A stretch of 64,000 nucleotides of DNA from an uncultured bacterium. Its GTDB lineage: Bacteria; Omnitrophota; Omnitrophia; Omnitrophales; Aquincolibacteriaceae. Each line of letters opens with the position of its first letter. Positions within the stretch are counted from its first letter, which is position 1. Below, piece after piece: positions 20 through 17,878 of this stretch. The position numbers and the translations under genes are program-made. The notes under the pieces are model-generated. The model searched no databases and was not told the origin of the DNA. It saw only the letters and a list, made by a program, of their open reading frames with translations. The stretch covers positions 40,650 to 104,649 of the forward strand of contig CAZSFZ010000005.1 in the NCBI GenBank assembly GCA_964606385.1, in the 5' to 3' direction.

Positions 20-3000
20 ATGAACATCGAAGAGTTTCGTCAGGCTTTGAGAACGCCGGGAGGTATCGCGGGTCTTAAGGCCAGGCTTGAGATCGCGGGC
101 ATGAGCGATTCCAAGACCGATGCGCTCCGTAAAGAACTGGAAGCCCTCAGGCAGATGCGAAGAGGGATCCACAGCAAACAATTCACCAGCGTGTGGGCGA
201 AGCTGGGCTATGACACCGGAGCTTTCCGCGCGAACGTGGGCATGAACATGAGGCTTTTCGGGGGCGATTACCGTGCGCGTCTCAAGGTCAACGAGTATGA
301 GCAGGAAAAGAAAGCAGACCAGATCGAAGAGCGTGAACAGGCGCTTTTGTTTGAAATGGAACGGAACCTCACGAGCCTCATCAGCACCGCGGAGCAAAAG
401 GATCTCGCGCGCCAAAGGCTGCAGGTCCTTATGAACGGGTGGGAAGAGAATCGGAGGAGCACGGCGCTTGGCCTTATCGGTGGTGATGCGGGTTTTGATG
501 ACGAGAGGAAACTTGTAGAGGCTTACCATGCCTTAAATGCCGTCGATCAGGCACACATGTGGAATTGGACGGATTTTAATCTGTTCCTTGTGAGGGGGAA
601 TATTAATCCAAGTATCCTGGGTGTTGCCGCCCAGGCTGCTGCCGGGACTGCCGAGATCACTCCCGTTCCGGCTCAGTCGAAGGCGAAAGTCGAGGTGCTG
701 ACGAAAGAAGATATCGGCCTTGATGCATTTCAATCGGACAGAAAGGTGATCGGGGAGACCGACAAGCGGGCTGAATTTCAACCCAATGCACGCGACCTGA
801 TGACGTCTCTTGGACTTGGCGTTTCCCTGTCTGCTGCAGAAGTTCAAAAATCAGAGGCTCTTTTCAAGGAGGCTGAAGAAGGACTGAAGGCCGCCAGGTC
901 CGGGCGCGATGCGGCTGCACGTAGGGTCCAGGAGCAGCAAAAGAAGGTGGATTCCCTTGCCAGGGAGCTTGAAAGTCTAAAAGTGTCTGAAAAAGCGAAA
1001 GCGGAGAAGAAAGACGGTTTTCTGAATTGGTTGTTAGGGCTTTTTGGCGTGGGGGAACAGTTTTCAGGGACTTTGAAGAGTGCTCTCATCGCAAAAGATC
1101 TTGAAAAGGCGGAACAGGAACTGGTGCGGCTCAAGGCCGATCTGGCGAAGGCTGAGCAGGATCGCCAGGAATGGGAAGTAAAGGCGCGGGAGGCGGACGG
1201 GCAGAGGAGGGCTTCGCTGTCCGCACAGGGTCTGGAAGAACTTATTGCTAAGATCCTAGGGGCTAATGTGGACAGCCATAACCTGGCGTCCACCCTTGGG
1301 AAAGAGGGCCTCCAACTGCGTTATCTCAATGCCTTGATCCAAGCGGCAAAATTTGACGGTGCGGAACGTATTTTGGAAAAGTTGCTCAACGGTCAAAAGC
1401 TTCAGGCATTCTGGGAGCAGGATGTGGGGGCTTCCTTTTTGGCGGATCCGGCGGCTACCGATGCCTTGCAGGAGATAAGGCTTGGGGCTGTCAAGTCCGA
1501 GGATCCCTCGAAAGATGTCAGCTTTTTGAGGTATGTCGGCTTTCTGGATTTTGTGGTGGCGCGGCATGTGGATTGGGCGCTTTTGAGTCCGGAGTTCCGC
1601 GCGAAGGCGAAGATCAATACACCTGCAGATGCGAACCGCTGGTTCCTCGAGCTTTTTGGGACCTTGGTTCAGGCTCGGGATCTTTTACAACAGCATTACC
1701 GTAATCTTCCCGATTCTGCGTTTCCCGCCGGTACGGATAAGGTCGCGATGGCAAAGTTGAAGCTCGGGATCCCGCTCGATATTAACGCTCCGGCCGAATT
1801 CGGTATGATCTGGGGGCTTGCATATGATGCCAAGCTTCGCGGGATCGATCTCGGGCGGGGTGAAGCGATCTTTAATGAAGAGATCACCGAGGAGAAGGAT
1901 TTTGACGGGGATAAAAAGCCGGATGTCACTGTGACGAGGAAGTATGAGGAGATCCTGAGGGAGAGTTTTCCGGATTACTCGCTTAACAAGCGTTGGCGCG
2001 CCGTACAGGATCGCCGTATCAATAGCGACGAGCGCCGCTATGGCATGGAAGAGGCCTGGGAATTCCGTGCGATCGTTCACGGAAAGTTTGCGCCGGACGG
2101 CAGCGTGACGCTTAACCAGATCGATCAGGATCAGACGGTAGAACAGGCGAGGACCCTCGCGGTGCAGGCGGCCCTCCGTCAATCGGGAGTCCGGAAGGAA
2201 CATTGGGGCAAGGTCGCTTATGCGGTCGGGATGATGAAGACCCTGATGGATACGAATATTCCCGCACCTATGGAAGGGTTTGAAGCGCTTGCCCGGCTGA
2301 GACAGATCGCCGCTGACGTGGCTGCTGTGCAATCCAAAAAATCCGGCGGGGCAGTGCTGACCCCGGTAGAGGAAAAAATACTGGCAGATGCTGCTGAAAA
2401 GGAAAAAGTCGCTATGCGCATTCTTGTTCAGGATAAGTTCGTGCAGTCTTCCGGAGCTTTTGCCGCGCGCGAATCCCTGACGCTGCTGCTCAAGAACGTG
2501 GGGACCCTGAGCCCGTCGGATAAAACCGCATACTACGATCTTATTGAGACCTCCATGGTCGACGCCAAGGATGGTATCGAGTTGGGCCGTGCGATGGGCC
2601 TTTTGAATACCCTGCTCCATGGTTCCGGTTTTGAAAGCTCGGAGGAGCGTGCGGCGTGGATCAAAATGGATCTATCGAAGCGCATCGAAAAAATGAAACA
2701 GCTTCTTGGGACCGCGTTCAACCTTAATAAGGTTATTAGCTATCCTATTGCGTCCGATGAAACAGGGGAACTGCTCGGACGGCTCCTTGCTATTGCCGGG
2801 GATCTTGATAAGGGGACGGATGCTTGGACGGAATTTTTCGATAAGGACGGAAATTTAGCCGGCACAGAGGAGAAGAACCAGGTCAAGATCGATCGTGCCC
2901 GTCGGCTTTCAACGAAACTGTTCCACACGATCCTGACGCCCGAGGGCCAGGCGGCTATTCTGAAATATGCGGCCGATGTGGATGAAATGAGTATCCATGA

Positions 3001-6000: not shown

Positions 6001-9000
6001 GCCGGTTGAGGGTAAATTCCAGCAATGGCGCAACGAATTCGACTGGAAGTTCAAACAAATGTTGCGGGGGACGCTGGACCTCGAGAAGCATGGTTGGGTC
6101 AATATCGCCATCATATCGGCGATCGCAGGCGCATTGCTTTTTATCGTCAGCTTGCTTCGCGACATTGCACGAAAAACAGTTTTGAAAAAAATAGGGCATG
6201 GAAAAATATATGACAATGATTTAAAAAGCCCGCAAAGTCAGCAGGGTTTTGACTGGGGATATCGCTTTTACGCCGCATTTATTTTTGCCGCGACCACGGG
6301 GATCATGGGGGTCTTTGCCTCGGTCAAGAATCTTGATGTTTTCTGGAGTCCGGCGTTTGTTTTCACGATCGCGGCTAATTTCTATCTCATTTATCACATC
6401 GTTAATATCTTCTTTCAGTATTTTGTCGGGAATCTCGGCGCCCGGCCGGTTTATCCGATGAAACCTTCCGGAGGAAGCCAGCCACTCCTTTCCGGAGAGA
6501 GTGATGAGCTTCAAGCCAAGGTTCTCGTGAGGCTGCTTCAAAAATTAGCGGCTGCTTCTCCAGACGCCCGTCCTCTTATTGGTGATCAAGTAGAAGCTTC
6601 CATTACACGTGTATTGAAGCAAAGGACGGGAGAATATCCGGCCACGGCCGATATCGTACCGTCCATTGTAGGTCAGTTAGCGGCTGCTCCCGACACGGAG
6701 GTTGCTGTCCGGGATTGGCTCGACAGCCTTCCCGCTGCTCGGTCAGAAACTAGAGCGGAGTCTCAGCCGAGATCCCAGATGCGGTTGACGGATGTGCAGG
6801 AAAAACAATTCCAGAAGGCAATGGATGGTGCGCAGGATAAATGGTGGTATAACTTTTTTCCAGATGGTGGTGAAAAGCGCAGAATTGATGCAATGCAAGC
6901 CTTAGCCGAGTTCAAAGACTCGAGAGCTATTCCCACATTAATTAAGATTTGGGAGAGCTCATTATCAGGTGGAAATGCTGATTCTTTCTTAGAGCGTGCT
7001 ATTCGAAACAGTGCGCAGCGCGCACTCAAGACATTTGAGTCGCATGAGTTTGTTCCCGAGCTTATTGATGCTTTAAATAATGCAACGGATTCTGGCATGC
7101 GTTATGTTTTTAGAATCTTTTCCACGCTTAAAGATCCGAGGACTTTCCCAGTCCTTCTCAATGCCTTAAAAGATGCTCGCCTCAGTTATCGGTTAAGTGC
7201 CGTTAGAGCTTTGACCGAGATGAGCGATGCCCAATTCGTTCCCGAGCTAATGACTGTTTTAAATGATGATAGCCCTGAGGTCTGCGTGCTTGCCGCTGGA
7301 GCCATTTTAAAATTTAACGATCCCCAAACCTTTCCGAAGTTAGTTGACGCTTTGGTCAGGGTTTTGGAAAGGTTGCCTCGTGGTGGTGAACATACAACGG
7401 CAGGTGATGATGCTATGAAACTCTTGGGTGAGTTAAAAGACCCTCGGGCAATTCCGGCATTGTCTCAGTTCGAAAGACGCCATGGACATGCTCAGTGGAC
7501 ATCATTGCGGGTTTGGTCCGATGCCTTAGAATCAATCAAAAAAGGCACTCAGGAACGTTCCGAACTCCGTTCCGAGGAAGATGAAGCTCGGGAAGATGCG
7601 GAACTTGAATTTCGCGAAGCCGCGGCACGAGGGAAGTGGAAAACCATGCCGCCGATGCCGCCGGTGGGGCAGATCCAGGCGTTACAAGAACTGCTTCGTC
7701 CGGACCGGGATGATCTCGGGGAAATGCAGGCCTGGATCGGACATCTCGTCCGGGTGCTTGAAGAGACGCCGCCTTCCTTAAAGCTTTTCCTTTTTGCTCG
7801 TGATTGGGACAGCCCCACGTCCAAAGAAGAGGGGATGACGGCGAAGGAGTTTATGCTTGCCGCAATGCGCAATGCCAAAACGGTCGACGGGCGAAGGGTT
7901 GATCTTTTGAAAGAATTTGGGGACCGTGTCGTGGTCTTCACCCGGAGCGGGTCGTTTGAAAAGCCTTATGATTACCAGGCCATTATGCGGTGGCTGAAGA
8001 CCGGGAAGCATACGCTGGAAGGTCGCATTAGCGAAGATATTGCGGATCCTGCTAAGCGTGCAGCTTTTGAGCATAAGTGGGGCGCTGATAAGGAGTGGGA
8101 TAAGTGGGAAGGGCATAATGCCCGGAAAGCCCTTGAACCGGTGCCTAGCAATGAGCCTGAGTTGGATGAACAAGGCCTTCCCAGAAAAGATGAAAAAGGC
8201 AATATCGTTTATAAACCTACATTGGATGAGAATGGTAATGTCGTGTATCCGCTTGAGCGCATTCCGCTGATCAACGGTGTGCTGGACAACAGGACTGGTG
8301 AGGAGATATCTCTCGATGCTGATCCGAAGAAATGGCCTCCCTTGGTTCAATCGCTACGAAATACGGAGCTCGGGAAATCCTCGGTAGAACACCTTCTCGT
8401 TTTTGATGCTGAGATCGGCATGACAGGGGAAGACGTGTTCTGGACGTTCGCAAAGATGAACGATCCGCGCAACAAACGTCACGGGATGTTCGAACCCCGC
8501 CAGATCGTCCGCAACGAAGCGGAAACAGTCCAAACTTTCAATGAGGCCACTGCCGGTGGTTCTCTCTGGTTCACGCATGGCGCCCTCAGCCGGTTCTTTA
8601 ACAGGATCCGCGCGTTCGGCAAGTTCGGGATCAAAGTAAACAAGTACTACGACGACATTATGGAGCCGACGGTCGATGACCCGTACGGTCCGTATATCGG
8701 GGCGTCGGTCAGAGCCAGCGATATGATCTTGCATCCCACGGCTTTCAAGCTCACTAAATTCTTTATTTTTATCGTTGTTCCCGTCGCGGTCACTTTATGC
8801 GTGAATGCGGTGATCGGATTGGGCGTCTTCCTGGCGGCATTCTCACTCCTGCCGAGGTTTTTTGCGAAGTGGCCGCACGTAAAAGGCTCGGGGACTTCCC
8901 GAGCGCTTTTGAGTCATGACGAATGGGAAGCGGTTTTTACGCCGGTAGCGCTGATGAACGACATTGTCATGGAGGATGACGCGAAGCCGAAGCCGATCAA

Positions 9001-12000
9001 CTGGCTTGAGCGTTTGTATCGCTGGATCGGAACTTTTGATGCCAACAGTATCCTTGCGAGGGCCCGTAACGCCCATATTTTCCGCCAGTCGAGTCGCGTG
9101 TTCAATAACGTGATCATTCGCGGGTTATTCGCGACCGCGATCTGGCTGGTCGTGATCCTTGTCGGGGGAGCTGAGACGTCGGTACCGGGTCTGGGTGGGG
9201 TTGCGCGGCCGTTGCTCGGGGAACTGTTGTATGCCGGCACGATGATCGCGCTATTGCATACCAAGATCACCGGACCGCTGATGAACTATTTAAAGAAGCT
9301 CGGATGGGGTTGGGGCTCCGTTGTCGCGGTCATCATGGGCGCGGCTATTTGGAAATTCCAATTGGACGCTCTCTTCTTTATGGTCGCGTTGTCAGGGCTA
9401 GTCGCATTGGTCGCTATCTTTCTGCCCCACGGGTGGGGTACGAACCTCTATTTCCACATAGGGGAAAGGGAGCTTTCCGGAACTGTAAGACTGAAAGGCG
9501 ACATTAAGCAAACCCGTCTGAAAACGGCGCTTTCCGCTCCTCTCCAGATGGGCGACATCGTTAATCAGGGCGGGGAGGAGACGGTTGCTTCGACCGGTTT
9601 TCTTCTGAATTACCTGGATTATTCGGTTCGTTACATTCGAAAGGCTTTTTCGAGCGTTTTTGCCATGCTTAAGACCAAGCGGGTCACGGCACTTGCACAG
9701 CCCAAGATCCCGAAAGAAACCATTTTTGATGCTATTCGAGCACTTCGCGTGACCGTGACCATTGGACTAGTCCTCCTTTTTGGAATGTGGGGGGCGGGGT
9801 GGATGCCGGATGCCGGGCTCGGAGCTTTACAGGTAGGGTTCTGGGGGCAGTTGGGGATCGCTTTGTTTTATTCCCTCGTTTTCCTCGGAAATTATGTGCA
9901 TATTTTTCAAAAATGGATCGCTACTAAAATTAATTTGGCCAAGGCAAAGGAAAACCTTGAAAAGGAAAAAATCAAAGAAAAAGAAATGGAAGTGATTGCG
10001 GCGAGAAATGCAACCGCTAATGGGACCACCCTTGAAGAGGAAAAGATAAAATTACGGAAAGCAGGGATGGGAGCGAATCTAAGCAGGTCCGCGGATTTTC
10101 AGGCTGAGATTGATGATGCGAAGCATGCTTCACGTCTGAACAAGAAGGATATTTTAAGGACGCTCTTTCATCCGATCGCTTTGCTGGCCGCAGTATACTT
10201 GGCACCGTATTATGGCCCGCTGCTCGATCAGCACCTCTTGGGACGTGCGCTCCCGATCCATCTGGCTTTGATCGGAGGGCCTTTCATCGCCTTCTTTCTC
10301 GGATTCGAATTCCACAAAACGAAGTTGTTGAAATATTTTGCCGAGAAATCCAGGCCTATCGCGACGCTCATCGGATCAATAACATGGGCAGGTACTTTCT
10401 GGTACTACGTGGCCATGGAACGTTTGCCGTGGCTTGGTGCGCTCTACCATAATGCGTTAGGTTGGCTCGGGATTATGTCCACGACGAGTTCCGCCGAAGG
10501 GTTTGTGATCAGCGGAACCGGACTTGGCGCGATGCTGGGTACAAATCCCGTCTTTGTCCTTCTTCATATTTTCGTGTTTGTGGGGGTCTCTCTCCTGGTG
10601 GTTATCGGTGCCGGTCTGGGAATCTACCATTATGTAGAAAGCCTTTTAACGAAAAACATCAAAAACACAGAAATTGGGGTTTTGAAAAAAGCTCTTAAAG
10701 ATTGGAAGAAGTACAATGAAAAAATGGCCGAACGAAAAGCTGCCTCGCAGGCTCAGTCACCTGACGCGCGGTCTGAGATGAGGAATGCGGTGTTGACGGA
10801 TCTCACCAAGATCATGGCGCGGCAGGATGCGCTGCCGGAAAAAGCGGATCTCATCATGGTGTTCGGGAGCGGGGATCTGCGCGTGGCGGCGGAGGTGGCG
10901 GAGATGTACAAGGCCTATGCCGCGAAGGGTGTGTCGCTGAAGGTCCTGGTTGCCGGAAAAGGCGACAAGACCGAGAAGCCTGAAGCCGAACTTTATAAGA
11001 ATGAGATGGTGGCCCGCGGTGTCCCGGCTGAAGCGGTGCTGATTGAACCGACCTCCATGAATATGAAGGAAAACGCTGAGTTTACGCAGAAGGTCCTGGT
11101 TGTTGAAAAGGAAAAATCGGGATTCGATCCTCAGGATATTATTTTTGTTCACGCACCGTTCCATGTTTTAAGAGGCGCGGATGCCGCAGTCAAGGTTTTT
11201 GGAACAAAGATCAAGGCCATCCACGCGGCGTATGTACCGACTGCGACTGAGTTACAGGACGCCAAAGTCATCGCCACGCTTGAAAAACAGGCGCCCAGGG
11301 TTGCCGAGATGCCGTCGATCGCCGAATCCGCAGCCATTAAGGCAAAACTCGACGAATATAAGGCGCTTACGGCACCCTCAGCTGTGCCACCCGCCCGCTC
11401 CGAGTTGCGTACGCCGGAGCAGGAGGCGTTGGTCCAGCCGGTGCGTATGATGACGGATGCGATGCTCGAAATGGTCACGACGGAAACTCTCGCAAATAAA
11501 TTCCGGGAGTTCATGCGCGCGGACATCCTTTTGACGCTCGCTCCCGAAAACAAGATGCTTTTCTACTCCGCGGGACCGGCGACCGGAAAAGGCGCCGTGC
11601 TTGGGGCCTCCTTCCTCGCCGAAGATGGGGAAATCGCGGCTCCGTATCAGGACCTTGTTCAAAAATTTGTCCTGGGCCACCAACGGGATTTCAGGCCCGG
11701 CGATAAGGAGAAAGACGGCCGGCATTATCATTTCCGGTCTCAGAGAGGCTATTGGGCTTCGAAATATGCCGCGCTTAAAGATGCGGGGTATTTCGAGATC
11801 CGAATGATCAACAACCAGGAGCAGATGCTGCCGATCAGGACTTTCACCGACTATGATGTTCCAGTCGAGCACGTTCAGAATGCCGGCCTGATCAATCCGC
11901 AGGATGTTGTGGTCAGCTACGAGATCCCGGAAGGACAGCGCATGAGGACGGAGCTAGTCGTTGAACGTCCTGGAGAAGGGCGTGTGACGCTACGCGATAT

Positions 12001-15000
12001 TATTATTCCCGCGGACAAGCAGGGGACATTCTTGCCGGAAGACGAAGTTGTCAATGTGTCGGGCTCTACGGTCACCGTGAACCGGCGCATCATAGGACTC
12101 AATGAGATGCTTGCCGCCAACCGTTTTACGGTTTTTGAAGGCGGTTACGATTGGTTCCGCTGGATCCAGGAAAATCATCCCGGCGCCTTGACCCTTTTCC
12201 TCTCACCGTTCGAGGAAGCGGATTTTGAAAAACGCTCCAAGAATATGGCGTGGATCCTCAGCGCGAAAGATTCGGCAGGAAGAAAACTGTTCCAGACCCC
12301 TCTCGATGTGTACCTGGCTTTTGAAGCAATTGACATGTTGGTGGAAGGAAAAGATCTAGGAGCTTTTGGGAAGATTGCGCCGAGAGGGGAGCTTGACATC
12401 ACCGGTCAGACCGATCTTCAGGAAACTGTGGTGAGGATTGTCCAACATTTGCGGTCGGGCGCTTACCCGGTCCAAGAGGCCAATGAGAGCGTCATTTTGG
12501 GTTCCCGTTTTATACAGGACCTCAATAATGTCATGGGCAATTTCGGCGCGCCTCAGATCGCTGCAAAGGATTACATGCTGGCTCGTGCGCTTGCCAATGA
12601 ATTGCAGCATCGGACCATGAGCCGCAAGGGAGCTGAACCGCAGCCTTTCTATGTATCCAATAAGCAGTCTAATGCTTATGAAAGGATTTTAGAGGGGATC
12701 TTCCAGATCATGACGCGCCACAACTATGGCGCGGGGAATGTTCTTCCGAACGCGCGGATTGCCGATGAGCAGCAGCGCAAAGAGGCGTTGGCGAAACTTG
12801 GCGACAAATTTGCGCGCCGGCTCTTTGAGCACACCATTGCGGGTATCCGCCGTTCCGAACTCCGCGAAGATGAAACGCCGGTCACCGTTTCGCGGTCTGA
12901 AGTGCGATCTGCGGAGGAGGTCATCCGGCATGTCAAGGAAATGCCCGCTGCAGATTTTGATGCTTTGAAGGTGCCGGAATTGGTTGAGTTGACCCGCGCG
13001 ATGATCCGTACGGGAGCTTTTAAACATTTCCCGGGTCTCGAAGAAAAAATGATGGTTTTTTCGGCCGGACCCGGAACGGGGAAAGGTACGCTTCTCAAAG
13101 TTACTTTTAAAGTTGAAGCGGCGGATCTTGAGAAAGATCCGACTGCCAGGGCGCCTTTCGAAGACTTAGTTGATCGGTTTGTGCTTTACCATTCTCGTGC
13201 TGCGCGCATTGATGTAGAGACTGGTTTGTCGGAAAAAGACGGGGAAGATTATCACTTCCGGAACAACACGGATTATCAGTTCGAAGTTCAACCGGAAAAT
13301 GTGAAGAAAGGTACCTATTTAAGAAGTTTGGCCGCCCAAGGACTGCCGCTGGAGATACAAGAGATTAACCGTCAGGCCCAAGGCATGGCGGTCAATGATT
13401 TTCCGGATGGAGAACCCGGGGTAGTCGTTGCAGATGTCGGCGGAACGGGTCTGTCTCAGTTAAAGACCGGAGATCTCGTGATTGACTTTGACCGAAGGCA
13501 GGGGTTGCTTCGAGTCATGCACCAGGAGAACGAAAGAACGGAAGTCTTGGGGATCTCTATCCCGAGGGACAAAAAAGGTCTTTTTCTCCCTGGAGATCGT
13601 ATCGAGGGTGTGCACGGGACAACGGTGACCGTGAAACGTTCGATCCGTGGCATTACGGGACTTTTTTCAGGTGACCGGCTTGGATTTCTGGAGGGGGGCT
13701 ACGAGTGGTTCCGGTACCTGAAAGATCAGTACCCGAAGATTTGGACATGCTTTCTTGCGCCATTGTCCCCGGCAGAACTTCAACAGCGAATTTATAATGA
13801 AGCCGCTATCGATTCAGCTTTTAAAGATCCCGAGGCGAACGCGTTGGCGCACCATATCATGTTTGCCCGCATGGCTGAATTGAACCGCGAAATAGATCTT
13901 CGCCTTCAGACAGAGATGGAAATGATCCGGGCCGAAGTGGCGAAAGGAGAAAATGGAAAATATGGCTCTATGGATCCTGTGCTTCTTAATAATTCGAAAC
14001 TTATTAAGTCCCCTCGCTTTAAGCGGGAACTCGATTCTCTGCTGCAAAAATACAACATGCCGCCTGTTAGCGTGGAGAGGCTGAAACAGGCCGAGGCGCT
14101 TGCATATGAGATCCAGCGCAGGCTTATCACTCGTGACCCCATACAACCCTTTTTGGATGGGGCGGACAAACCGACGGATCGTCTTAATCGTGTTCTGACG
14201 GGGATCTTCCAAAATTTCACGAGTGAGCAGTATAGCCAGACTGTTGTCAACCGATTCGGATATACAAGGGAGCAAAGAAAGGCAAATCTTGCGCAACTAT
14301 CAGATGAATTCATGGACGGCTATTTGAGGCATGTGCTGGCCGCTGTGCGTCGCTCCGAAGTGCGTGTCCAAACGGTTTCGGACCTTCTGGATGTGGTGGG
14401 TGAGGATGACCAGGCGACGGGGCAGCAGGTGGAGCGGAACGTGGCCCATGAAACGGGTGTCCGTCATCGCGCTGCGGTGCTTTTCGCCTTCAACCGGAAA
14501 GGGGAACTGCTGATCCAGAAGCGGGGTATGGAGAAGGACGTTTTCCCGGATACGTGGACATTCTCGGCAAGCGGTCATGTGGATGCCGGAATGAGCTACG
14601 CCAAAACGATCTTGAAAGAAGCTCCCGAGGAAATGGGTATGTCGCTCGATCCGCAGAGGCTGAATGTCATCGGGGCTACGGGGATGCCGTGGTCGTCCCT
14701 GAAGCAGTACGCTTATACTTTTTCGACTGATGACGTTGCTAAAACCCAGGAGGCGATCGAAAAGGCCCATGAAAGATTAGTCCGTGACGGAGTGCTGCCC
14801 GCCCGGCTTGAATTTGATAATCTTCTTTGGAGAGTTTGGCCGGATCCCGCCAAGGGGAAGGTGACGGTATTCTTGTATAAGTTGAGCTCGAAGCTGGACA
14901 CGGCTTTGGATGCGGCCCGCGACAAAGTAAGTCCCGTGCTGAGAGAAATGGTCGGGGAGTATGAACAGCGGACCATCATGAACCGGGATAACCGGACCCA

Positions 15001-17764
15001 TTACGCGTACCGCTTGAACGAACAGGAAGAGGAATTCCTCGCAAAACGTGCCGAGGAGATCCGCCGGAAGGCCGGGGCCGAGCCGTCCGCCGAGGTGACC
15101 GACCTGAAGTTCGCTTCCCTTGAAGATATCCGGCAGCAGTTCCGTCAGCATCCGACGCTCTTTGTCGAGGACATGCTGATCCTCTTCGACCCGCAGTTGA
15201 ATCGGGACCTGGAGGTCACGGAAGACCTTCTTCGCGAAAGCAAGGTCCAGGAAAAGATTCCGGCTGTGGCGGGTCTGAGCCAGAACGTGCGGGAGGTCAA
15301 GCAGCGGCTCCAGAGGTCGCTTGAGGATCCGAGAGAGGATTTCGACGCGGTCGTGCTGGTCGTGAACCCGGCGTTTACGGGTGTGGTGCGCGAGGCCTTG
15401 GAGGGATTGAAGGGGATCGCGTATAACCCCGCGCTCAGGATCGCGGTCGTGGAAGAAGAGCCCGCGGGGAGCATTACGGATTCATTGGTCGGTGCCGACA
15501 TAGCATTGCGTCAAATGTTCGGAGAAAACTACGCGTCGCAAGTGGCCGATAAGAAGGTCGCGATCATCACGATGTCCGGTTTCGGAGCGCGGATGCCGAC
15601 CGATTTCGGTAAAGGGCTCTTGTCCTTGCCGGGCGGACGGACATACCTGGAACAAATACTGCGACAGCGTTTCTTCTTCCTGGACAAGAACTTCCGCGGG
15701 TTGATGGTCCTTTCGATCGATGGCATCAAGATCCCTCAGTTCATGCCTGAGATGGGCAAGGCCGGTATCCAGGTCATCGGATTGCCGATGGCCCGGACGG
15801 ATGAGAACGTCGGAGAACTGGGGCTTTTCGTCGTGAGCGATCCGTTCCGTCCCGGTGCGCAACCCATCCAATATGCTTTTGAAAAGTTACCGCGCTCTCA
15901 ACGGGATGATTATGCCGCCCGGCAGTTGATCCCGGGCCGGTACGTCAATGTATCGCAGGCGGATTATCCTCTTTCCTGGGAAGCTTATACATGGCTGCTG
16001 GAACAGGTGCGGGCGATGCAGCAAACGCTTGAAACGAAATATCGGGCCGAAGGGAAGAGCTATCGCGACGATAATGTGGCTTACAACTGGGCCGAGCATT
16101 TGTTCGAGCTGGCGTTTTTGCCGGAAGACCTGGTTCCGGACTATCTGGAGCGCTCGGTGGAGCGTTCGGGTCCCATGGACAAGGATGTTTTTGATCAGTT
16201 CCTGCGCATCGCGCGCGAGGCGAGGCAGCGTTTCGGTATGGAATTCGTCAACGTGGGGACCGATTCCGTTTACCATAACACGAACCGTCCCGATCAATAC
16301 CGCGATTTTCTGATCTCGCTCCTGTCGAACGCGGCCGTGCGGGACATGTTCGATCTTGTGGAGCGCCAAGGAAAGCTGGTCGATCTGCAGGCGGAGCAGG
16401 TCAGTCCGTCCGTGTTCAGCTCTCCGATCGAGAGCGGCGTGCTGGTCTCCAAAAGTATCATTGACCTCGGCGTGCAGATGAAAAAAGGAAGCGTTGTTTT
16501 CAATAGCGCGCTGGTGGCGGGTACCAAGATCGACACGCAGGGAGCCGTCATCAACAGCGTGGGGCGCTTCATCGTGCCGCGCGGGGCGATCGTGGACTCC
16601 GTGATCGCTCCTGCGGAAGGTCTGGAAGTGCTGCCGGATAGCTACACGCGGGGGTATTTTGTCAAAAGGCCGGACGGAAAGATCGAGCAGATCCTCGTGT
16701 CGCTCCCGGTGAAGATCCTGGTTACAAGCGGGCAGGCGGCTGATCTAAAGGTGACGGATGTGAAGAGCGCCTTGGATGGTAAACGCTTGAGCCGTTTCGA
16801 GATCTTCCCTCGAGCGGAGCATTTGGCGAATAGGATCCCGTCCTTGGCTGAAGAATCCCCGGAAAAATATTCATTGGATGAGATCCGCAAAGATCTCGAT
16901 CGTGACATGGCTTGGCAGTTCCGTCGGCAGTTGGTCCAGGCCGCCCAAGATCAATCGATGACCGCCTTCCGCCTTGCGGAGAACATGAAAGCTTCTCTTG
17001 CTCAAAAAGGCATGGTCGAAATGAAGCGTTCGGAATTGCGGGAAACGGAAGCGGAAGTCCTCCCGGCAGAAACCGGCGATATTCAGGCAAAAACGGAAGC
17101 TGCCCTCGTGGAATCGCGCGATGATGAGATCGCCGAGGCGATCCAGGCGGCCGTGAAGGAATCTGCGGCGATGCGTCAGGAGATCAGGCTGCAGACCGAA
17201 GTTTTGAGTCAGGATGCGATGCGTGCCGAGGTGCGGATGACCGCGAAAATCATTGAGATGATGAAAGACCTGGGCTTGCAGTCTTACGGCGATCAGACGC
17301 GCTTTGTGGTGCCTTTTGACCAGGATCTCATCCAGAGTCTGATCAAGAATAACCCGAAGGCCAAGATCGTGATCGTGACGAAGTCGTTGGAGGAGAAAGC
17401 GACGGCCGAAGAGCGTACGGCGGGATTCACGGAAGCCACGGGTGTTGTGTTCGATTACGTAGTGAGCAGGAACTTCCAGCTCGATGTCCGTAATATTGCC
17501 GCCGACCAGGCGAAGGAACTGGGTCTCGAGGTCGTCTCCGGTCAACGGAACCGCAGCGTTCTCTTGGTCCGTAAGATCGCGGATGCCGCCATGACGGCCG
17601 AGAAGATCAACCGGGCTTATGCTCTGGTAGGCCAGATGTTCGGTATTGTCGCGATCGTGGGCTTCCAACCCGATGTGTCCGTCGATTTCGCGACCGATCA
17701 CTCGATCGCCGACATCCTGCAATCCGAGATCAGCGCCCAGCAGGCGATCGGCAAGTCCGCATAA
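20..17764 (+). CDS. Giant multidomain membrane-associated protein (5914 aa); the 5' end may extend beyond the window, since the frame is open from nt 2. Modules: N-terminal charged/coiled-coil region; 3 TM helices (~6098-6430); HEAT/PBS-lyase-like repeats (~6790-7500); 12+ TM helix block (~8740-10640); DUF218/YdcF-like (~10850-11230); two tandem ~500-aa modules (~11396-14365); Nudix-like (~14430-14890); sugar-nucleotidyltransferase-like plus left-handed beta-helix (~15550-16620)
   Basis: A single stop-free frame of 17.7 kb in the standard code, which cannot arise by chance at this GC content. Motifs read directly from the sequence: DPRAIPAL/DSRAIPTL HEAT-like repeats; LIMVFGSGDLRV...IFVHAPFHVLRG (DUF218-like); GHVDAGMSYAKTILKEAPEEMGM (degenerate Nudix box); ITMSGFGARMPTDFGKGLLSLPGG (NTP-transferase-like G-x-G-x-R) followed by hexapeptide-repeat segment VVFNSALVAGTKIDTQGAVINSVGRFIVPRGAIVDSV; many hydrophobic 20-23 aa segments. 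RSE[LV]R motifs at 7556, 11396, 12851, 12893, 14351 and 17027. Confidence 0.85.
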   Translation: MNIEEFRQALRTPGGIAGLKARLEIAGMSDSKTDALRKELEALRQMRRGIHSKQFTSVWAKLGYDTGAFRANVGMNMRLFGGDYRARLKVNEYEQEKKADQIEEREQALLFEMERNLTSLISTAEQKDLARQRLQVLMNGWEENRRSTALGLIGGDAGFDDERKLVEAYHALNAVDQAHMWNWTDFNLFLVRGNINPSILGVAAQAAAGTAEITPVPAQSKAKVEVLTKEDIGLDAFQSDRKVIGETDKRAEFQPNARDLMTSLGLGVSLSAAEVQKSEALFKEAEEGLKAARSGRDAAARRVQEQQKKVDSLARELESLKVSEKAKAEKKDGFLNWLLGLFGVGEQFSGTLKSALIAKDLEKAEQELVRLKADLAKAEQDRQEWEVKAREADGQRRASLSAQGLEELIAKILGANVDSHNLASTLGKEGLQLRYLNALIQAAKFDGAERILEKLLNGQKLQAFWEQDVGASFLADPAATDALQEIRLGAVKSEDPSKDVSFLRYVGFLDFVVARHVDWALLSPEFRAKAKINTPADANRWFLELFGTLVQARDLLQQHYRNLPDSAFPAGTDKVAMAKLKLGIPLDINAPAEFGMIWGLAYDAKLRGIDLGRGEAIFNEEITEEKDFDGDKKPDVTVTRKYEEILRESFPDYSLNKRWRAVQDRRINSDERRYGMEEAWEFRAIVHGKFAPDGSVTLNQIDQDQTVEQARTLAVQAALRQSGVRKEHWGKVAYAVGMMKTLMDTNIPAPMEGFEALARLRQIAADVAAVQSKKSGGAVLTPVEEKILADAAEKEKVAMRILVQDKFVQSSGAFAARESLTLLLKNVGTLSPSDKTAYYDLIETSMVDAKDGIELGRAMGLLNTLLHGSGFESSEERAAWIKMDLSKRIEKMKQLLGTAFNLNKVISYPIASDETGELLGRLLAIAGDLDKGTDAWTEFFDKDGNLAGTEEKNQVKIDRARRLSTKLFHTILTPEGQAAILKYAADVDEMSIHESKNKRGKEGDVAAIARDLALNDRLQTLDDVKEELSIRTQIFQEAPKLGEDFRLHATELNFYSDMFREFRDLYTQMTVPQLFDLIKAAMSSRGELLQTTIPSLEQRVKPELLTTDDYKAFLEKARYLSGQTMDFSAAFQLVTDFFNDQKRRVPEKRAAFEDAASWIAEQEKIKTLLQAGYMLTHFDEAGDPLPMEGSDISSWIDNIRRGFFGEDQIAAVMDNVQVLKYDGDIEILNNVAKGKFLRAYAGRVLLAGAMSEADVSKVLDAIFSKIDSRGRYDFKAIEAEIQARIQNPEARQKVLEAMNKFPVFKYWEKMGLARDAVNLKRSPEWMRLWFDFVAVLEEASLVEANKMVDTAQLSFAVRRSLKGTVTVDSMKSFLMGPEDPWYKKPFSWAQNKRLFRQMRFVDEYHDFAFMDMGPAINDYQRLVGTWNMVFKQLPGTAEVDFGTEIWNAMDKDPVFSQWKISDREALQRQAIAHFQMIDASFADKYYAALVGKRTQLTEAENQEIWGKVRAAQEAVRAQMKQTVIDSLISRAKGEPDRAAFRKESLTLSAELLGLRGAAKDAWKSRRDFYDENRAFPEGKTEKEIASGLQTMYTELLAKIPAGDRGFYPKELDKYTLEALVKEMIVWGYTMNDVFYRFVQLNYEVEGAYRKALKIPDSTRLTRVQSGEVSAYTEELFKSVGFLISGAYPGEAEALKRVGRPLDGIITTELARFQDRLVLRDQLKDLFTKKFGNTTQIHESKTEVDRKAYLWATKLQERVKTVKDVEVWVTQAQALMTTAPQLSVSEALALMDTWIDLGIADAPSTEKVWDDAQMKSEWDTYRTGLVAYAQGPGYEKAWRNFWLYDPATQVMRDFNSPEFQALVNARIAQRKISPVQLKALIDQVMKTDALIRKIMRQQDEKSISDKTRLIEGIRSISIVDLLFYYDAISNPGEKIDFIDIAAETSGRRDEMLPQMQAWQKMVQDAISSAKKFELEEGMLPEKFDLTEFTTPKAPAPVEGKFQQWRNEFDWKFKQMLRGTLDLEKHGWVNIAIISAIAGALLFIVSLLRDIARKTVLKKIGHGKIYDNDLKSPQSQQGFDWGYRFYAAFIFAATTGIMGVFASVKNLDVFWSPAFVFTIAANFYLIYHIVNIFFQYFVGNLGARPVYPMKPSGGSQPLLSGESDELQAKVLVRLLQKLAAASPDARPLIGDQVEASITRVLKQRTGEYPATADIVPSIVGQLAAAPDTEVAVRDWLDSLPAARSETRAESQPRSQMRLTDVQEKQFQKAMDGAQDKWWYNFFPDGGEKRRIDAMQALAEFKDSRAIPTLIKIWESSLSGGNADSFLERAIRNSAQRALKTFESHEFVPELIDALNNATDSGMRYVFRIFSTLKDPRTFPVLLNALKDARLSYRLSAVRALTEMSDAQFVPELMTVLNDDSPEVCVLAAGAILKFNDPQTFPKLVDALVRVLERLPRGGEHTTAGDDAMKLLGELKDPRAIPALSQFERRHGHAQWTSLRVWSDALESIKKGTQERSELRSEEDEAREDAELEFREAAARGKWKTMPPMPPVGQIQALQELLRPDRDDLGEMQAWIGHLVRVLEETPPSLKLFLFARDWDSPTSKEEGMTAKEFMLAAMRNAKTVDGRRVDLLKEFGDRVVVFTRSGSFEKPYDYQAIMRWLKTGKHTLEGRISEDIADPAKRAAFEHKWGADKEWDKWEGHNARKALEPVPSNEPELDEQGLPRKDEKGNIVYKPTLDENGNVVYPLERIPLINGVLDNRTGEEISLDADPKKWPPLVQSLRNTELGKSSVEHLLVFDAEIGMTGEDVFWTFAKMNDPRNKRHGMFEPRQIVRNEAETVQTFNEATAGGSLWFTHGALSRFFNRIRAFGKFGIKVNKYYDDIMEPTVDDPYGPYIGASVRASDMILHPTAFKLTKFFIFIVVPVAVTLCVNAVIGLGVFLAAFSLLPRFFAKWPHVKGSGTSRALLSHDEWEAVFTPVALMNDIVMEDDAKPKPINWLERLYRWIGTFDANSILARARNAHIFRQSSRVFNNVIIRGLFATAIWLVVILVGGAETSVPGLGGVARPLLGELLYAGTMIALLHTKITGPLMNYLKKLGWGWGSVVAVIMGAAIWKFQLDALFFMVALSGLVALVAIFLPHGWGTNLYFHIGERELSGTVRLKGDIKQTRLKTALSAPLQMGDIVNQGGEETVASTGFLLNYLDYSVRYIRKAFSSVFAMLKTKRVTALAQPKIPKETIFDAIRALRVTVTIGLVLLFGMWGAGWMPDAGLGALQVGFWGQLGIALFYSLVFLGNYVHIFQKWIATKINLAKAKENLEKEKIKEKEMEVIAARNATANGTTLEEEKIKLRKAGMGANLSRSADFQAEIDDAKHASRLNKKDILRTLFHPIALLAAVYLAPYYGPLLDQHLLGRALPIHLALIGGPFIAFFLGFEFHKTKLLKYFAEKSRPIATLIGSITWAGTFWYYVAMERLPWLGALYHNALGWLGIMSTTSSAEGFVISGTGLGAMLGTNPVFVLLHIFVFVGVSLLVVIGAGLGIYHYVESLLTKNIKNTEIGVLKKALKDWKKYNEKMAERKAASQAQSPDARSEMRNAVLTDLTKIMARQDALPEKADLIMVFGSGDLRVAAEVAEMYKAYAAKGVSLKVLVAGKGDKTEKPEAELYKNEMVARGVPAEAVLIEPTSMNMKENAEFTQKVLVVEKEKSGFDPQDIIFVHAPFHVLRGADAAVKVFGTKIKAIHAAYVPTATELQDAKVIATLEKQAPRVAEMPSIAESAAIKAKLDEYKALTAPSAVPPARSELRTPEQEALVQPVRMMTDAMLEMVTTETLANKFREFMRADILLTLAPENKMLFYSAGPATGKGAVLGASFLAEDGEIAAPYQDLVQKFVLGHQRDFRPGDKEKDGRHYHFRSQRGYWASKYAALKDAGYFEIRMINNQEQMLPIRTFTDYDVPVEHVQNAGLINPQDVVVSYEIPEGQRMRTELVVERPGEGRVTLRDIIIPADKQGTFLPEDEVVNVSGSTVTVNRRIIGLNEMLAANRFTVFEGGYDWFRWIQENHPGALTLFLSPFEEADFEKRSKNMAWILSAKDSAGRKLFQTPLDVYLAFEAIDMLVEGKDLGAFGKIAPRGELDITGQTDLQETVVRIVQHLRSGAYPVQEANESVILGSRFIQDLNNVMGNFGAPQIAAKDYMLARALANELQHRTMSRKGAEPQPFYVSNKQSNAYERILEGIFQIMTRHNYGAGNVLPNARIADEQQRKEALAKLGDKFARRLFEHTIAGIRRSELREDETPVTVSRSEVRSAEEVIRHVKEMPAADFDALKVPELVELTRAMIRTGAFKHFPGLEEKMMVFSAGPGTGKGTLLKVTFKVEAADLEKDPTARAPFEDLVDRFVLYHSRAARIDVETGLSEKDGEDYHFRNNTDYQFEVQPENVKKGTYLRSLAAQGLPLEIQEINRQAQGMAVNDFPDGEPGVVVADVGGTGLSQLKTGDLVIDFDRRQGLLRVMHQENERTEVLGISIPRDKKGLFLPGDRIEGVHGTTVTVKRSIRGITGLFSGDRLGFLEGGYEWFRYLKDQYPKIWTCFLAPLSPAELQQRIYNEAAIDSAFKDPEANALAHHIMFARMAELNREIDLRLQTEMEMIRAEVAKGENGKYGSMDPVLLNNSKLIKSPRFKRELDSLLQKYNMPPVSVERLKQAEALAYEIQRRLITRDPIQPFLDGADKPTDRLNRVLTGIFQNFTSEQYSQTVVNRFGYTREQRKANLAQLSDEFMDGYLRHVLAAVRRSEVRVQTVSDLLDVVGEDDQATGQQVERNVAHETGVRHRAAVLFAFNRKGELLIQKRGMEKDVFPDTWTFSASGHVDAGMSYAKTILKEAPEEMGMSLDPQRLNVIGATGMPWSSLKQYAYTFSTDDVAKTQEAIEKAHERLVRDGVLPARLEFDNLLWRVWPDPAKGKVTVFLYKLSSKLDTALDAARDKVSPVLREMVGEYEQRTIMNRDNRTHYAYRLNEQEEEFLAKRAEEIRRKAGAEPSAEVTDLKFASLEDIRQQFRQHPTLFVEDMLILFDPQLNRDLEVTEDLLRESKVQEKIPAVAGLSQNVREVKQRLQRSLEDPREDFDAVVLVVNPAFTGVVREALEGLKGIAYNPALRIAVVEEEPAGSITDSLVGADIALRQMFGENYASQVADKKVAIITMSGFGARMPTDFGKGLLSLPGGRTYLEQILRQRFFFLDKNFRGLMVLSIDGIKIPQFMPEMGKAGIQVIGLPMARTDENVGELGLFVVSDPFRPGAQPIQYAFEKLPRSQRDDYAARQLIPGRYVNVSQADYPLSWEAYTWLLEQVRAMQQTLETKYRAEGKSYRDDNVAYNWAEHLFELAFLPEDLVPDYLERSVERSGPMDKDVFDQFLRIAREARQRFGMEFVNVGTDSVYHNTNRPDQYRDFLISLLSNAAVRDMFDLVERQGKLVDLQAEQVSPSVFSSPIESGVLVSKSIIDLGVQMKKGSVVFNSALVAGTKIDTQGAVINSVGRFIVPRGAIVDSVIAPAEGLEVLPDSYTRGYFVKRPDGKIEQILVSLPVKILVTSGQAADLKVTDVKSALDGKRLSRFEIFPRAEHLANRIPSLAEESPEKYSLDEIRKDLDRDMAWQFRRQLVQAAQDQSMTAFRLAENMKASLAQKGMVEMKRSELRETEAEVLPAETGDIQAKTEAALVESRDDEIAEAIQAAVKESAAMRQEIRLQTEVLSQDAMRAEVRMTAKIIEMMKDLGLQSYGDQTRFVVPFDQDLIQSLIKNNPKAKIVIVTKSLEEKATAEERTAGFTEATGVVFDYVVSRNFQLDVRNIAADQAKELGLEVVSGQRNRSVLLVRKIADAAMTAEKINRAYALVGQMFGIVAIVGFQPDVSVDFATDHSIADILQSEISAQQAIGKSA
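11396..14365 (+). repeat. Intragenic tandem duplication of a ~1.47-kb (~490 aa) module inside giant ORF 1 (copy A ~11396-12865, copy B ~12893-14365); copies are diverged at the DNA level but clearly homologous at the protein level
   Basis: Both copies share the ordered motifs M(L/V)F(Y/F)SAGPxTGKG, DLV(Q/D)(K/R)FVL(G/Y)H, (K/D)GxxYHFR, GxTVTV(N/K)R, (F/L)EGGY(D/E)WFR(W/Y), QPF...GIFQ, and both end in (I/V)RRSE(L/V)R. Confidence 0.7.
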
Positions 17765-17787
17765 CACAAGCCTCACTATGGCTTGTC

Positions 17788-17857
17788 GTGGAACGGGGAA
17801 CGCAGAACGGTAAACGATGCTTTAGACGTTCCGCGTTTCCCGTTTCCCGTTACCCGG
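17788..17857. repeat. Inverted-repeat element made of tandem GGNAACG-type heptamers (4 units per arm, 10-nt loop), 24 nt after the stop of giant ORF 1; likely intrinsic terminator or REP-like element
   Basis: Forward arm GTGGAACG GGGAACG CAGAACG GTAAACG, loop ATGCTTTAGA, reverse arm CGTTCCG CGTTTCC CGTTTCC CGTTACC CGG; the arms are reverse complements unit by unit. Confidence 0.6.
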
Positions 17858-17862
17858 CCTTT

Positions 17863-17871
17863 TGCTATACT
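17863..17871 (+). promoter_or_regulatory. Extended -10 element TGcTATACT ending 7 nt before the nadE ATG; implies a leaderless or near-leaderless nadE transcript
   Basis: TGCTATACT at 17863-17871; nadE ATG at 17879 with no Shine-Dalgarno sequence in between. The same 9-mer recurs at 20094-20102 and 24615-24623 upstream of other genes. Confidence 0.4.
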
Positions 17872-17878
17872 TCCACTC

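Follow-up and report, generated by a model that had tools for sequence, protein, structure and literature searches.

The subject of this analysis is a single open reading frame (ORF) of 5914 amino acids (aa) at positions 20..17764 of a 64-kb stretch of bacterial DNA from contig CAZSFZ010000005.1. The stretch as a whole is called the window below, and the ORFs given with coordinates lie on the + strand. The frame of the ORF is open at the 5′ edge of the window and runs to a stop codon. The best explanation that we can offer, and one that we hold with somewhat better than even confidence, is that these 17.7 kb are the 3′ part of a gene that encodes a giant inner-membrane protein of the type described from the Omnitrophota. 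Its main new features are shared with a second, unrelated giant encoded in the same window: both proteins are nearly free of cysteine, and both are punctuated by a strict five-residue motif, R-S-E-x-R. The motif, the second giant that shares it, and the depletion of cysteine all go beyond an initial annotation of this DNA, which had described the first ORF as a membrane protein of many modules. That annotation stands in part. The ORF itself, its HEAT, DUF218, and Nudix modules, and an internal duplication were borne out; a coiled-coil N-terminal region, a GlmU-like enzyme, and an architecture without precedent were not.

A giant gene and its relatives

The ORF is free of stop codons in one frame over 17.7 kb, and the frame is still open at the 5′ edge, with no stop in the six codons (positions 2–19) that precede the ATG at position 20. 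Inspection for a ribosome-binding site gives no decision on this ATG as the start, such sites being weak throughout the window. Residue 1354 of a homologue, L003, pairs with residue 16 of the window protein, so that L003 runs at least 1353 aa farther upstream, and residue 1951 of a second homologue, L004, pairs with residue 835, an extension of about 1100 aa; with all this additional length, both are themselves cut at their 5′ ends. Because homologues in three independent assemblies reach at least 1100–1350 aa farther, the window ORF is probably truncated by the window edge and its gene extends upstream, as had been suspected from the lack of an upstream stop in the window.

The family to which the giant belongs is rare. 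When a 4914-aa query was compared with 5.8 billion proteins, the single match was P0001 (∼80% identity), and an exhaustive HMMER pass of residues 2518–3588 over 1.84 billion representatives returned 15 matches; a metagenome scan with an alignment of the N-terminal region found no relatives. Colinear homologues are P0001 and P0005 (∼80–90% identity), L003 (50–61%), L004 (23–36%), P0006, P0007, and P0016. L003 is an 18.8-kb contig that forms one stop-free frame from end to end. The L004 locus lies on a 72-kb ENA contig, and its giant ORF, open at the locus start, covers 17.8 kb (at least 5924 aa) and is followed by NadE (60% identity to that of the window) and ArgS (61%), the same order of genes as in the window. 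The giant thus diverges faster than the housekeeping genes beside it, at 23–36% against about 60% identity between the window and L004. The more distant loci L005 and L006, which like L003 and L004 came from genome and metagenome scans, each consist of one ORF (6291 and 6902 aa, respectively) that is open at both ends.

A further homologue, P0002, is 68% identical over 99% of residues 4783–5674, and its NCBI record is that of a partial NUDIX protein from a Candidatus Omnitrophota bacterium. It is this label that points, indirectly, to an Omnitrophota origin of the window protein. It also bears on the supposed novelty of the architecture, which did not hold up: besides P0002, giant membrane-anchored multi-enzyme proteins have been described in two preprints on the phylum (West-Roberts et al., bioRxiv 10.1101/2023.11.21.568195; Nielsen and Lui, bioRxiv 10.64898/2026.06.07.730766).

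Punctuation by R-S-E-x-R

The motif R-S-E-[VLMA]-R stands at nearly every module border of the window giant, in eight or nine copies. From the N-terminal side, these form a doubled linker, RSETR-x5-RSQMR, at residues 2241–2255 (6740..6784); RSELR at 2513–2517 (7556..7570); RSEMR at 3584–3588 (10769..10783); RSELR at 3793–3797 (11396..11410); a second doubled linker, RSELR-x9-RSEVR, at 4278–4296 (12851..12907); RSEVR at 4778–4782 (14351..14365); and RSELR at 5670–5674 (17027..17041). In an unbiased scan of gapped pentamers, RSExR ranked first in each of the three giants considered, with 8 copies against 0.10 expected in the window giant, 12 against 0.12 in the second giant, and 6 against 0.11 in L003. 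The frame that encodes the two giants of the window holds 20 instances, compared with 0–3 in each of the other five frames.

The second giant, at 31637..46882, is 5081 aa long and carries 12 copies, which delimit pieces of 180–780 aa. BLASTP between the two giants gave no match at E ≤ 1e-3, and their contents differ in kind: the second has few transmembrane (TM)-like segments, and its Pfam domains are PG_binding_1, HD_4 (weak), PRTase-CE (weak), Sa_NUDIX, and at least two S-adenosylmethionine methyltransferase domains, with no Pfam match in its first 2600 aa.

Among the relatives, 49 instances were collected in which Arg, Ser, Glu, and the final Arg are fixed, and the fourth position is occupied by Val (24), Leu (9), Met (7), Ala (5), Ile (2), or Thr (1). 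Small residues (Gly, Pro, or Ala) come directly before the motif and acidic residues directly after it. Doubled motifs are frequent, spaced by 0–9 residues, as in RSEARSEVR and the second doubled linker of the window giant. At the level of the codons, all third positions vary, and Arg is encoded by both CGN and AGR; only the TCN class of Ser codons is fixed, which is what purifying selection would lead one to expect. A nucleotide-level origin, as a DNA repeat, a recombination site, or an RNA signal, is ruled out by this synonymous variation, the freedom of which indicates that selection acts on the peptide.

Across the giants, the motif delimits pieces of 180–1100 aa, and it is between motifs that the differences among homologues fall, namely the loss of the HEAT module, the gain of a 285-aa module, and the exchange of Nudix for a HIT-like module. 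The punctuation is absent from the giants of L004, L005, L006, P0013, and P0015. Given that the motif is common to unrelated giants of one genome and missing from their orthologues in a lineage farther removed, we infer that it is read by a lineage-specific factor acting in trans, and it may be a processing site. A literature search for the motif strings found no relevant match, and neither preprint on Omnitrophota giants mentions this linker or the depletion of cysteine described below. As a separate observation, the L004 giant has one R-S-E-Q-R, 10 residues from its C-terminal end.

Depletion of cysteine

The window giant contains 3 cysteines in 5914 aa and the second giant 4 in 5081 (0.05–0.08%), compared with 0.54–2.9% in fourteen neighboring ORFs. 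The L003 giant has a single cysteine in 6262 aa, and those of L004, L005, and L006 have none in about 19,000 aa, set against 7 and 9 in the NadE and ArgS proteins of L004. Cysteine content is at most 0.13% in the close, fragmentary relatives, 0.28% in the distant giants P0013 and P0015, and 0.64% in the stand-alone synthase homologues P0012 and P0017. Proteins that pass through membranes unfolded, or that reside outside the cytoplasm, typically show such a near-absence of cysteine. The giants may avoid it because they are exported or translocated unfolded, because they are exposed beyond the cytoplasm, or so that such long chains form no cross-links.

A probable, diverged polysaccharide synthase at the core of the chain

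Between the linkers at residues 2513–2517 and 3584–3588 lies a module (residues 2518–3583; 7571..10768) of which the initial annotation had noted a block of 12 or more TM helices. Hydropathy gives about 10–12 hydrophobic segments at residues 2902–3543, with which a model from AlphaFold2 (AF2) agrees. The block of helices is thus reasonable, and the identity of the module can be sharpened: profile comparison, AF2, and Foldseek together suggest a strongly diverged, membrane-embedded, processive glycosyltransferase (GT) of the GT2 fold, closest to family GT84, with its activity and product being predictions. A predicted cytoplasmic GT-A domain occupies residues ∼2550–3010, and the TM helices residues ∼2902–3543.

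The idea arose from two strings, LLSHDEWEA and LERLYRW, which we took to resemble motifs of OpgH and Cgs, and it was then tested by profile search. A profile of the module (A5) found as its best match in the PDB Cgs itself (8rf0/8rf9; E = 2.4e-15), in an alignment that spans the region of the DAD, QPR, SHD, and RxxRW motifs. The corresponding residues of the window protein are D2796-A-E2798, E2825-P-R2827, L-S-H-D2967, and L-Y-R3001-W3002, the last two being paired by HMMER with the SHD and RW of Cgs. In Cgs, D624, D626, and D739 are the residues mutated to inactivate the GT, and D739 is the catalytic base (PMC10901819). The window protein keeps the equivalents of D624 (D2796) and D739 (D2967) and has Glu in place of the second Asp, so that the DxD position reads D-A-E; the relatives P0013 and P0016 have DAD.

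An AF2 model built with a 16-sequence alignment has a mean predicted local distance difference test (pLDDT) score of 60, with values of 60–90 over most of the GT part, and packs a GT-A fold domain against the TM helices. Foldseek against the PDB placed Cgs first, followed by hyaluronan synthase (HAS), plant CesA, chitin synthases, and BcsA, with probabilities of ∼1, and almost all of the top 45 matches were Cgs, HAS, CesA, chitin synthase, BcsA, or Fks. It may be added that the GT domain of the window's clade has a hydrophobic hairpin of ∼95 aa (residues 2902–2950; 8723..8869) inserted between FGKFGIKV and SHD, where stand-alone relatives such as P0012 have only ∼25 residues; AF2 confidence is low in this stretch.

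Other modules along the chain

The N-terminal region (residues 1–2020; 20..6079) has no R-S-E-x-R motif within it. It is 83% identical to P0001, 50% to L003, and 23% to L004, and its 2000 aa gave no match in Pfam, NCBIfam, or PDB profile searches. The initial annotation had called this a long coiled-coil-like region. Only residues 296–393 pass a crude composition filter for such a structure; residues 456–2020 are aromatic-rich and conserved. There follows a first hydrophobic block, with three TM-like segments at residues 2024–2132 (6089..6415), evident from hydropathy and kept in L003, L004, and P0001, as had been described. With those of the synthase, the whole chain has some 13–15 hydrophobic segments, which makes the original estimate of about 15 TM helices reasonable, the count being by hydropathy with no dedicated topology predictor. 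Neither a signal peptide nor a secretion-system domain was seen in the available part of the giant.

Of the modules named at the outset, those of HEAT and DUF218 lie above Pfam gathering thresholds. HEAT/PBS-lyase-type repeats occupy residues 2288–2486 (6881..7477; HEAT_2, 6.9e-14, 52.3 bits; HEAT_PBS, 1.4e-9, 37.9 bits), and a DUF218 domain of the YdcF/SanA type occupies residues 3610–3746 (10847..11257; PF02698, 4.9e-14, 52.8 bits against a gathering threshold of 27.6, covering positions 1–119 of 133 in the profile).

The duplicated module, given initially as of 500 aa, measures ∼490 aa: residues 3800–4289 and 4295–4784 align with 32% identity (E = 5e-63). Paralogue and profile comparisons suggest that both copies, A at residues 3798–4277 (11411..12850) and B at 4297–4777 (12908..14350), are guanylate kinase (GK)-like. 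A profile built from five copies (A3) had 11 matches in the PDB, all of them guanylate kinases, the best at E = 6.9e-5 over GK residues 10–70, which comprise the P-loop and the GMP-binding segment. Over the two window copies PF00625 gave no Pfam match, and it reached E = 0.0095 in the L003 copy (16.1 bits against a cut-off of 25.2). The P-loop (AGPxTGKG; SAGPATGKG in module A) is one residue shorter than GxxGxGK and retains its Lys, and the GMP-site-like motif EKDG-x-YHFR (EKDGRHYHFR in module A) is retained likewise. P0006 holds a copy 63% identical to module A.

Next comes a NUDIX domain at residues 4815–4910 (14462..14749; PF00293, 3e-8, 34.2 bits against a gathering threshold of 21.1), the nearest kin of which in NCBIfam and the PDB (1ow2/1q27) are Nudix proteins of the IPP-isomerase (IDI)/YfcD/DR0079 type. 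That its fold is degenerate, as first annotated, is apparent in part of the Nudix box, which at residue 4852 reads GHVDAG-M-SYAKTIL-KEAPEEMGM; compared with GX5EX7REUXEEXGU, the first Glu is replaced by Met and the Arg by Lys. The catalytic Cys of IDI is replaced by Ser.

Residues ∼5100–5640 (15317..16939) had been read as a GlmU-like nucleotidyltransferase (NT) with a left-handed β-helix. A nucleotidyltransferase is weakly supported, its β-helix remaining, like the NT part, below thresholds; the GlmU-like assignment is not borne out, and two independent weak signals point instead to the FKP/FPGT type. One is a partial match to PF07959 (Fucose_pyrophosphorylase) at E = 0.039, with 13.3 bits against a cut-off of 34 and covering module residues 370–428 only. 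The other is Foldseek, which placed the FKP GDP-fucose pyrophosphorylases 9iis and 9iit on top (E = 2e-3 and 5e-3; next E = 0.13), with a model built on a 4-sequence alignment that has a pLDDT of 41 and is a weak pointer only. Sequence and profile searches of Pfam, NCBIfam, and the PDB found no match at normal thresholds. Direct reading gives a G-x-G-x-R…K-G…P-G-G motif, of a kind typical for sugar-1-phosphate nucleotidyltransferases, followed by a β-rich part, and the block MSGFGxRMPT..GKGLLSLPGGRTYLEQ is largely conserved, many of its residues being invariant in homologues of 36–78% identity. We treat the module as a probable, if weakly supported, sugar-1-phosphate nucleotidyltransferase.

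The chain closes with a C-terminal domain of ∼240 aa (17042..17761), for which the window copy has no Pfam match. Similar ends recur in the family (…IGKSA in the window protein, …IATSA in P0002, …TAKSA in P0004, and …IQASA in L004, each directly before the stop) and may constitute a conserved C-terminal signal.

Comparison among the homologues separates a conserved core from accessory modules. In L004, the order is the N-terminal region, TM segments, the GT84-like module, a single GK-like module, the NT-like module, and the C-terminal domain, with no HEAT, DUF218, Nudix, or second GK-like copy. The HEAT module is also absent from P0001 and L003 and is present in P0016; DUF218 is also absent from L003 and P0006. 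P0001, which lacks HEAT, has an extra 285-aa module ahead of DUF218; in P0006 the GK-like modules come directly after the synthase; P0004 has GNAT-like and HIT-like modules (the latter recognized by reading the sequence) in place of the window's Nudix; and in P0016 the synthase, HEAT, and DUF218 are followed by different enzymes. The core has six parts: the region of more than 2000 aa, the three hydrophobic segments, the GT84/GT2-type synthase, the GK-like module, the FKP-like NT module, and the C-terminal domain. The HEAT repeats, DUF218, the second GK-like copy, and the IDI/YfcD-like Nudix are accessory in the window genome.

Function and fate of the giant chain

Because the conserved core combines a GT84/GT2-type synthase with modules that fit the supply of nucleotide sugars, the role in the cell envelope that had been proposed for this protein is supported and can be stated more sharply. 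That the synthase, GK-like, and NT-like modules keep occurring together suggests a membrane-tethered glycan factory. The NT-like module would make a nucleoside-diphosphate sugar, which may be a GDP-sugar; recycling or policing of the nucleotide pool would fall to the GK-like and Nudix modules; and the synthase would polymerize the sugar on the cytoplasmic side and, probably, pass the polymer along a TM channel of its own. The likeliest reader of R-S-E-x-R would be an endopeptidase, cutting the giant into module-sized products of 200–1100 aa. The enzyme activities, the sugar, the export of the polymer, and the cleavage are all things that we infer, and the confidence expressed at the outset applies to the explanation as a whole. 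For one component, it must be set lower: that the motif is an endopeptidase recognition site, and the giants bacterial polyproteins inserted whole into the membrane and then cut into enzymes of 200–1100 aa around a novel polysaccharide synthase, is a tentative proposal drawn from the sequences.

Several observations weigh against this explanation. The catalytic motifs deviate (D-A-E for DxD, E-P-R for QPR, a short P-loop, a Nudix box without its first Glu, and Ser for the Cys of IDI). The GT model has low Foldseek TM-scores (0.2–0.4) and a mean pLDDT of only 60, and no Pfam or NCBIfam match was found to the GT module in the window, P0006, P0010–P0013, or P0017; the NT-like assignment lies below every curated threshold. 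Processive GT2 synthases usually use UDP-sugars, which is a poor fit if the helper modules are read as handling guanine nucleotides. With regard to cleavage, the motif is degenerate at some L003 borders, the 64-kb window, with both giants included, yielded no protease, and a non-cleaved hinge or docking motif would account for the data equally well.

That last alternative retains the anatomy given above for a chain that is never cut, in which R-S-E-x-R would act as a structural or recognition element of the linkers: it could form a hinge or cap a helix, it could dock the HEAT scaffold or some other partner, or its Ser or Arg could be modified. One tethered chain would then channel substrates beside the synthase. 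We give this reading well under even odds. In the GK-like modules, the motif follows without a break on the final helix (…FEHTIAGIRRSELR), leaving no free loop, and this, like the lack of a protease in the window, favors an intact chain, for the fusion of which tethering of enzymes to a synthase would be a plausible selective reason. A study of the phylum based on DeepTMHMM likewise regards proteins of this kind as single chains anchored in the membrane (10.64898/2026.06.07.730766). However, four invariant residues in five, kept across unrelated modules and proteins, are seldom required of a hinge or cap; doubled motifs 0–9 residues apart resemble paired sites rather than structural elements; and the orthologous giants of L004–L006 do without the motif.

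Rather improbable, in our estimation, is that the modules are pseudoenzymes, no longer catalytic, which provide binding or support within a very large structure of the envelope, or one for attachment, in an episymbiotic or predatory lifestyle, with the protein perhaps exported or exposed. The deviating catalytic signatures just listed would be expected of such a scaffold, and its case is helped by the scarcity of cysteine (0.05% against 0.5–2.9% in neighbors, and 0 in ∼19,000 aa of the L004–L006 giants) and by the much faster evolution of the giant (23–36% identity) than of the flanking housekeeping genes (60%). Yet key residues are kept, namely D2796, D2967, and the R-W pair of the synthase, the P-loop Lys and EKDG-x-YHFR of the GK-like modules, and the invariant G-x-G-x-R…K-G of the NT-like module, and the available part of the chain shows no sign of a secretion route in the form of a signal peptide or secretion-system domain. 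As for an artefact, whether a chimeric contig or an operon of ordinary genes joined through errors of sequencing or assembly, it could draw on the match between motif-delimited pieces and the sizes of ordinary proteins, and on the absence of the window's own protein from the collection of 5.8 billion. Its probability is nonetheless negligible. The initial annotation had named such an artefact as what would overturn it, and the stop-free, colinear arrangement recurs in independent assemblies, at least five in number and drawn from different projects (L003, L004, P0001, P0005, P0006, and P0016), one of them with the same downstream NadE–ArgS synteny. In place of stop, ribosome-binding, and start signals, the linkers carry the code for a conserved peptide. 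The artefact is effectively refuted, and by comparison of these sequences the ORF is neither a product of chance nor of assembly.

The surrounding genes

The neighbors of the giants are ordinary housekeeping genes: NadE, ArgS, MiaA, HflX, a Tal–Pgi fusion, a LysM amidase, an SNF symporter, a CitMHS transporter, PFOR, an ADP-forming acetyl-CoA synthetase, a cytidylate-kinase-like protein, NrdD, a radical-SAM protein, and a GT2. The radical-SAM protein is presumably NrdG, the activase of NrdD. No tRNA, rRNA, or Rfam family was found in the 64-kb window.

The NadE ORF (17783..19549) has a listed start at TTG 17783. The L004 orthologue aligns only from residue 37, which makes the Met at ∼17879 the probable start and leaves an intergenic gap of ∼115 nt after the stop of the giant. 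The fused transaldolase–phosphoglucose isomerase (TAL_FSA and PGI; 24683..27556) has 957 aa. The GT2, a stand-alone glycosyltransferase of conventional type (59226..60608; Glyco_tranf_2_3 and Glyco_trans_2_3), lies 41 kb downstream of the giant, and its visibility to Pfam indicates that the genome also encodes ordinary GT2 enzymes. A third long ORF (60581..64000; at least 1140 aa) runs past the 3′ end of the window, in DNA of lower GC content (0.49), and has a hydrophobic, signal-peptide-like N terminus (…LLKILCLVLYIGLSFLAPESILG).

Comparison with known systems

The giants of the Omnitrophota are a recent puzzle with respect both to their function and to the question of whether the chain works as a whole or is cleaved into pieces. 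One preprint places them in an “Archaeovorin” category with glycosyltransferases, methyltransferases, NUDIX, and HEAT domains, and notes that the cleavage points were not known, which blocked module-wise analysis (West-Roberts et al., bioRxiv 10.1101/2023.11.21.568195). The other describes a class of “multi-enzyme metabolic clusters” with TM anchoring, in a catalogue with a threshold of 10 kaa (Nielsen and Lui, bioRxiv 10.64898/2026.06.07.730766). The window protein is like these giants in its one very long ORF, its many TM helices, its unrelated enzyme domains, and its HEAT, NUDIX, and glycosyltransferase content, as well as in its tiny or singleton sequence families, its housekeeping genomic context, and the absence of any clear signal peptide over its available length. 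Its visible 5914 aa fall short of the 10-kaa threshold, with the frame open at the edge. In contrast to the published giants, no C39/S8 peptidase, SecA-like, or dockerin domain was found in it, and its GT84-like synthase is invisible to Pfam, whereas GT5 and GT1 were reported there as most prevalent. Such a hidden polysaccharide synthase among nucleotide-sugar-type enzymes would point to the production of envelope glycans, and not only to the degradation of prey.

With Cgs, the window protein shares a GT-A domain docked under TM helices and the general plan of a very large, multi-domain inner-membrane protein that carries a synthase and further enzyme domains on one chain. Only ∼180 residues align, however, and the number of TM helices is ∼10–12 compared with 6 in Cgs, with an extra TM hairpin between FGKFG and SHD. 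The window protein is also without a GH94 phosphorylase or cyclase domain, and there is consequently no reason to expect a cyclic β-1,2-glucan as its product. BcsA, CesA, hyaluronan synthase, and chitin synthase, in which a cytoplasmic GT-A domain and a TM channel couple polymerization to export, match it at the level of the fold, with 8–12% sequence identity, and a comparable channel function is predicted for the window protein. FKP/FPGT (PF07959; 9iis, 9iit) is the sole family common to the Pfam scan and the fold search for residues ∼5100–5640; the window module differs from FKP in having no fucokinase (GHMP) domain.

A strict five-residue motif common to unrelated giants makes the question of processing testable and offers a rule for splitting giants into modules for structure prediction. 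If the cleavage reading is true, the motif would be the first usable map of the cleavage points missing from the giant-gene literature, and the near-complete lack of cysteine would add another rule of design, as yet without explanation; if the motif proves to be a hinge, it would still be a useful annotation marker of module borders in the lineage. Polymorphic toxins provide a parallel in their demarcation motifs, VENN in CdiA and PxxxxDPxGL in Rhs, and in Rhs proteins and viral polyproteins motifs of this sort are the sites of cleavage. The motif described here differs from those of the toxins in occurring 8–12 times per protein rather than once, and in separating metabolic-enzyme-like modules with no immunity genes. 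What it has in common with them, and with the sites of polyproteins, is that a short, strict peptide stands where conserved and swappable modules meet.

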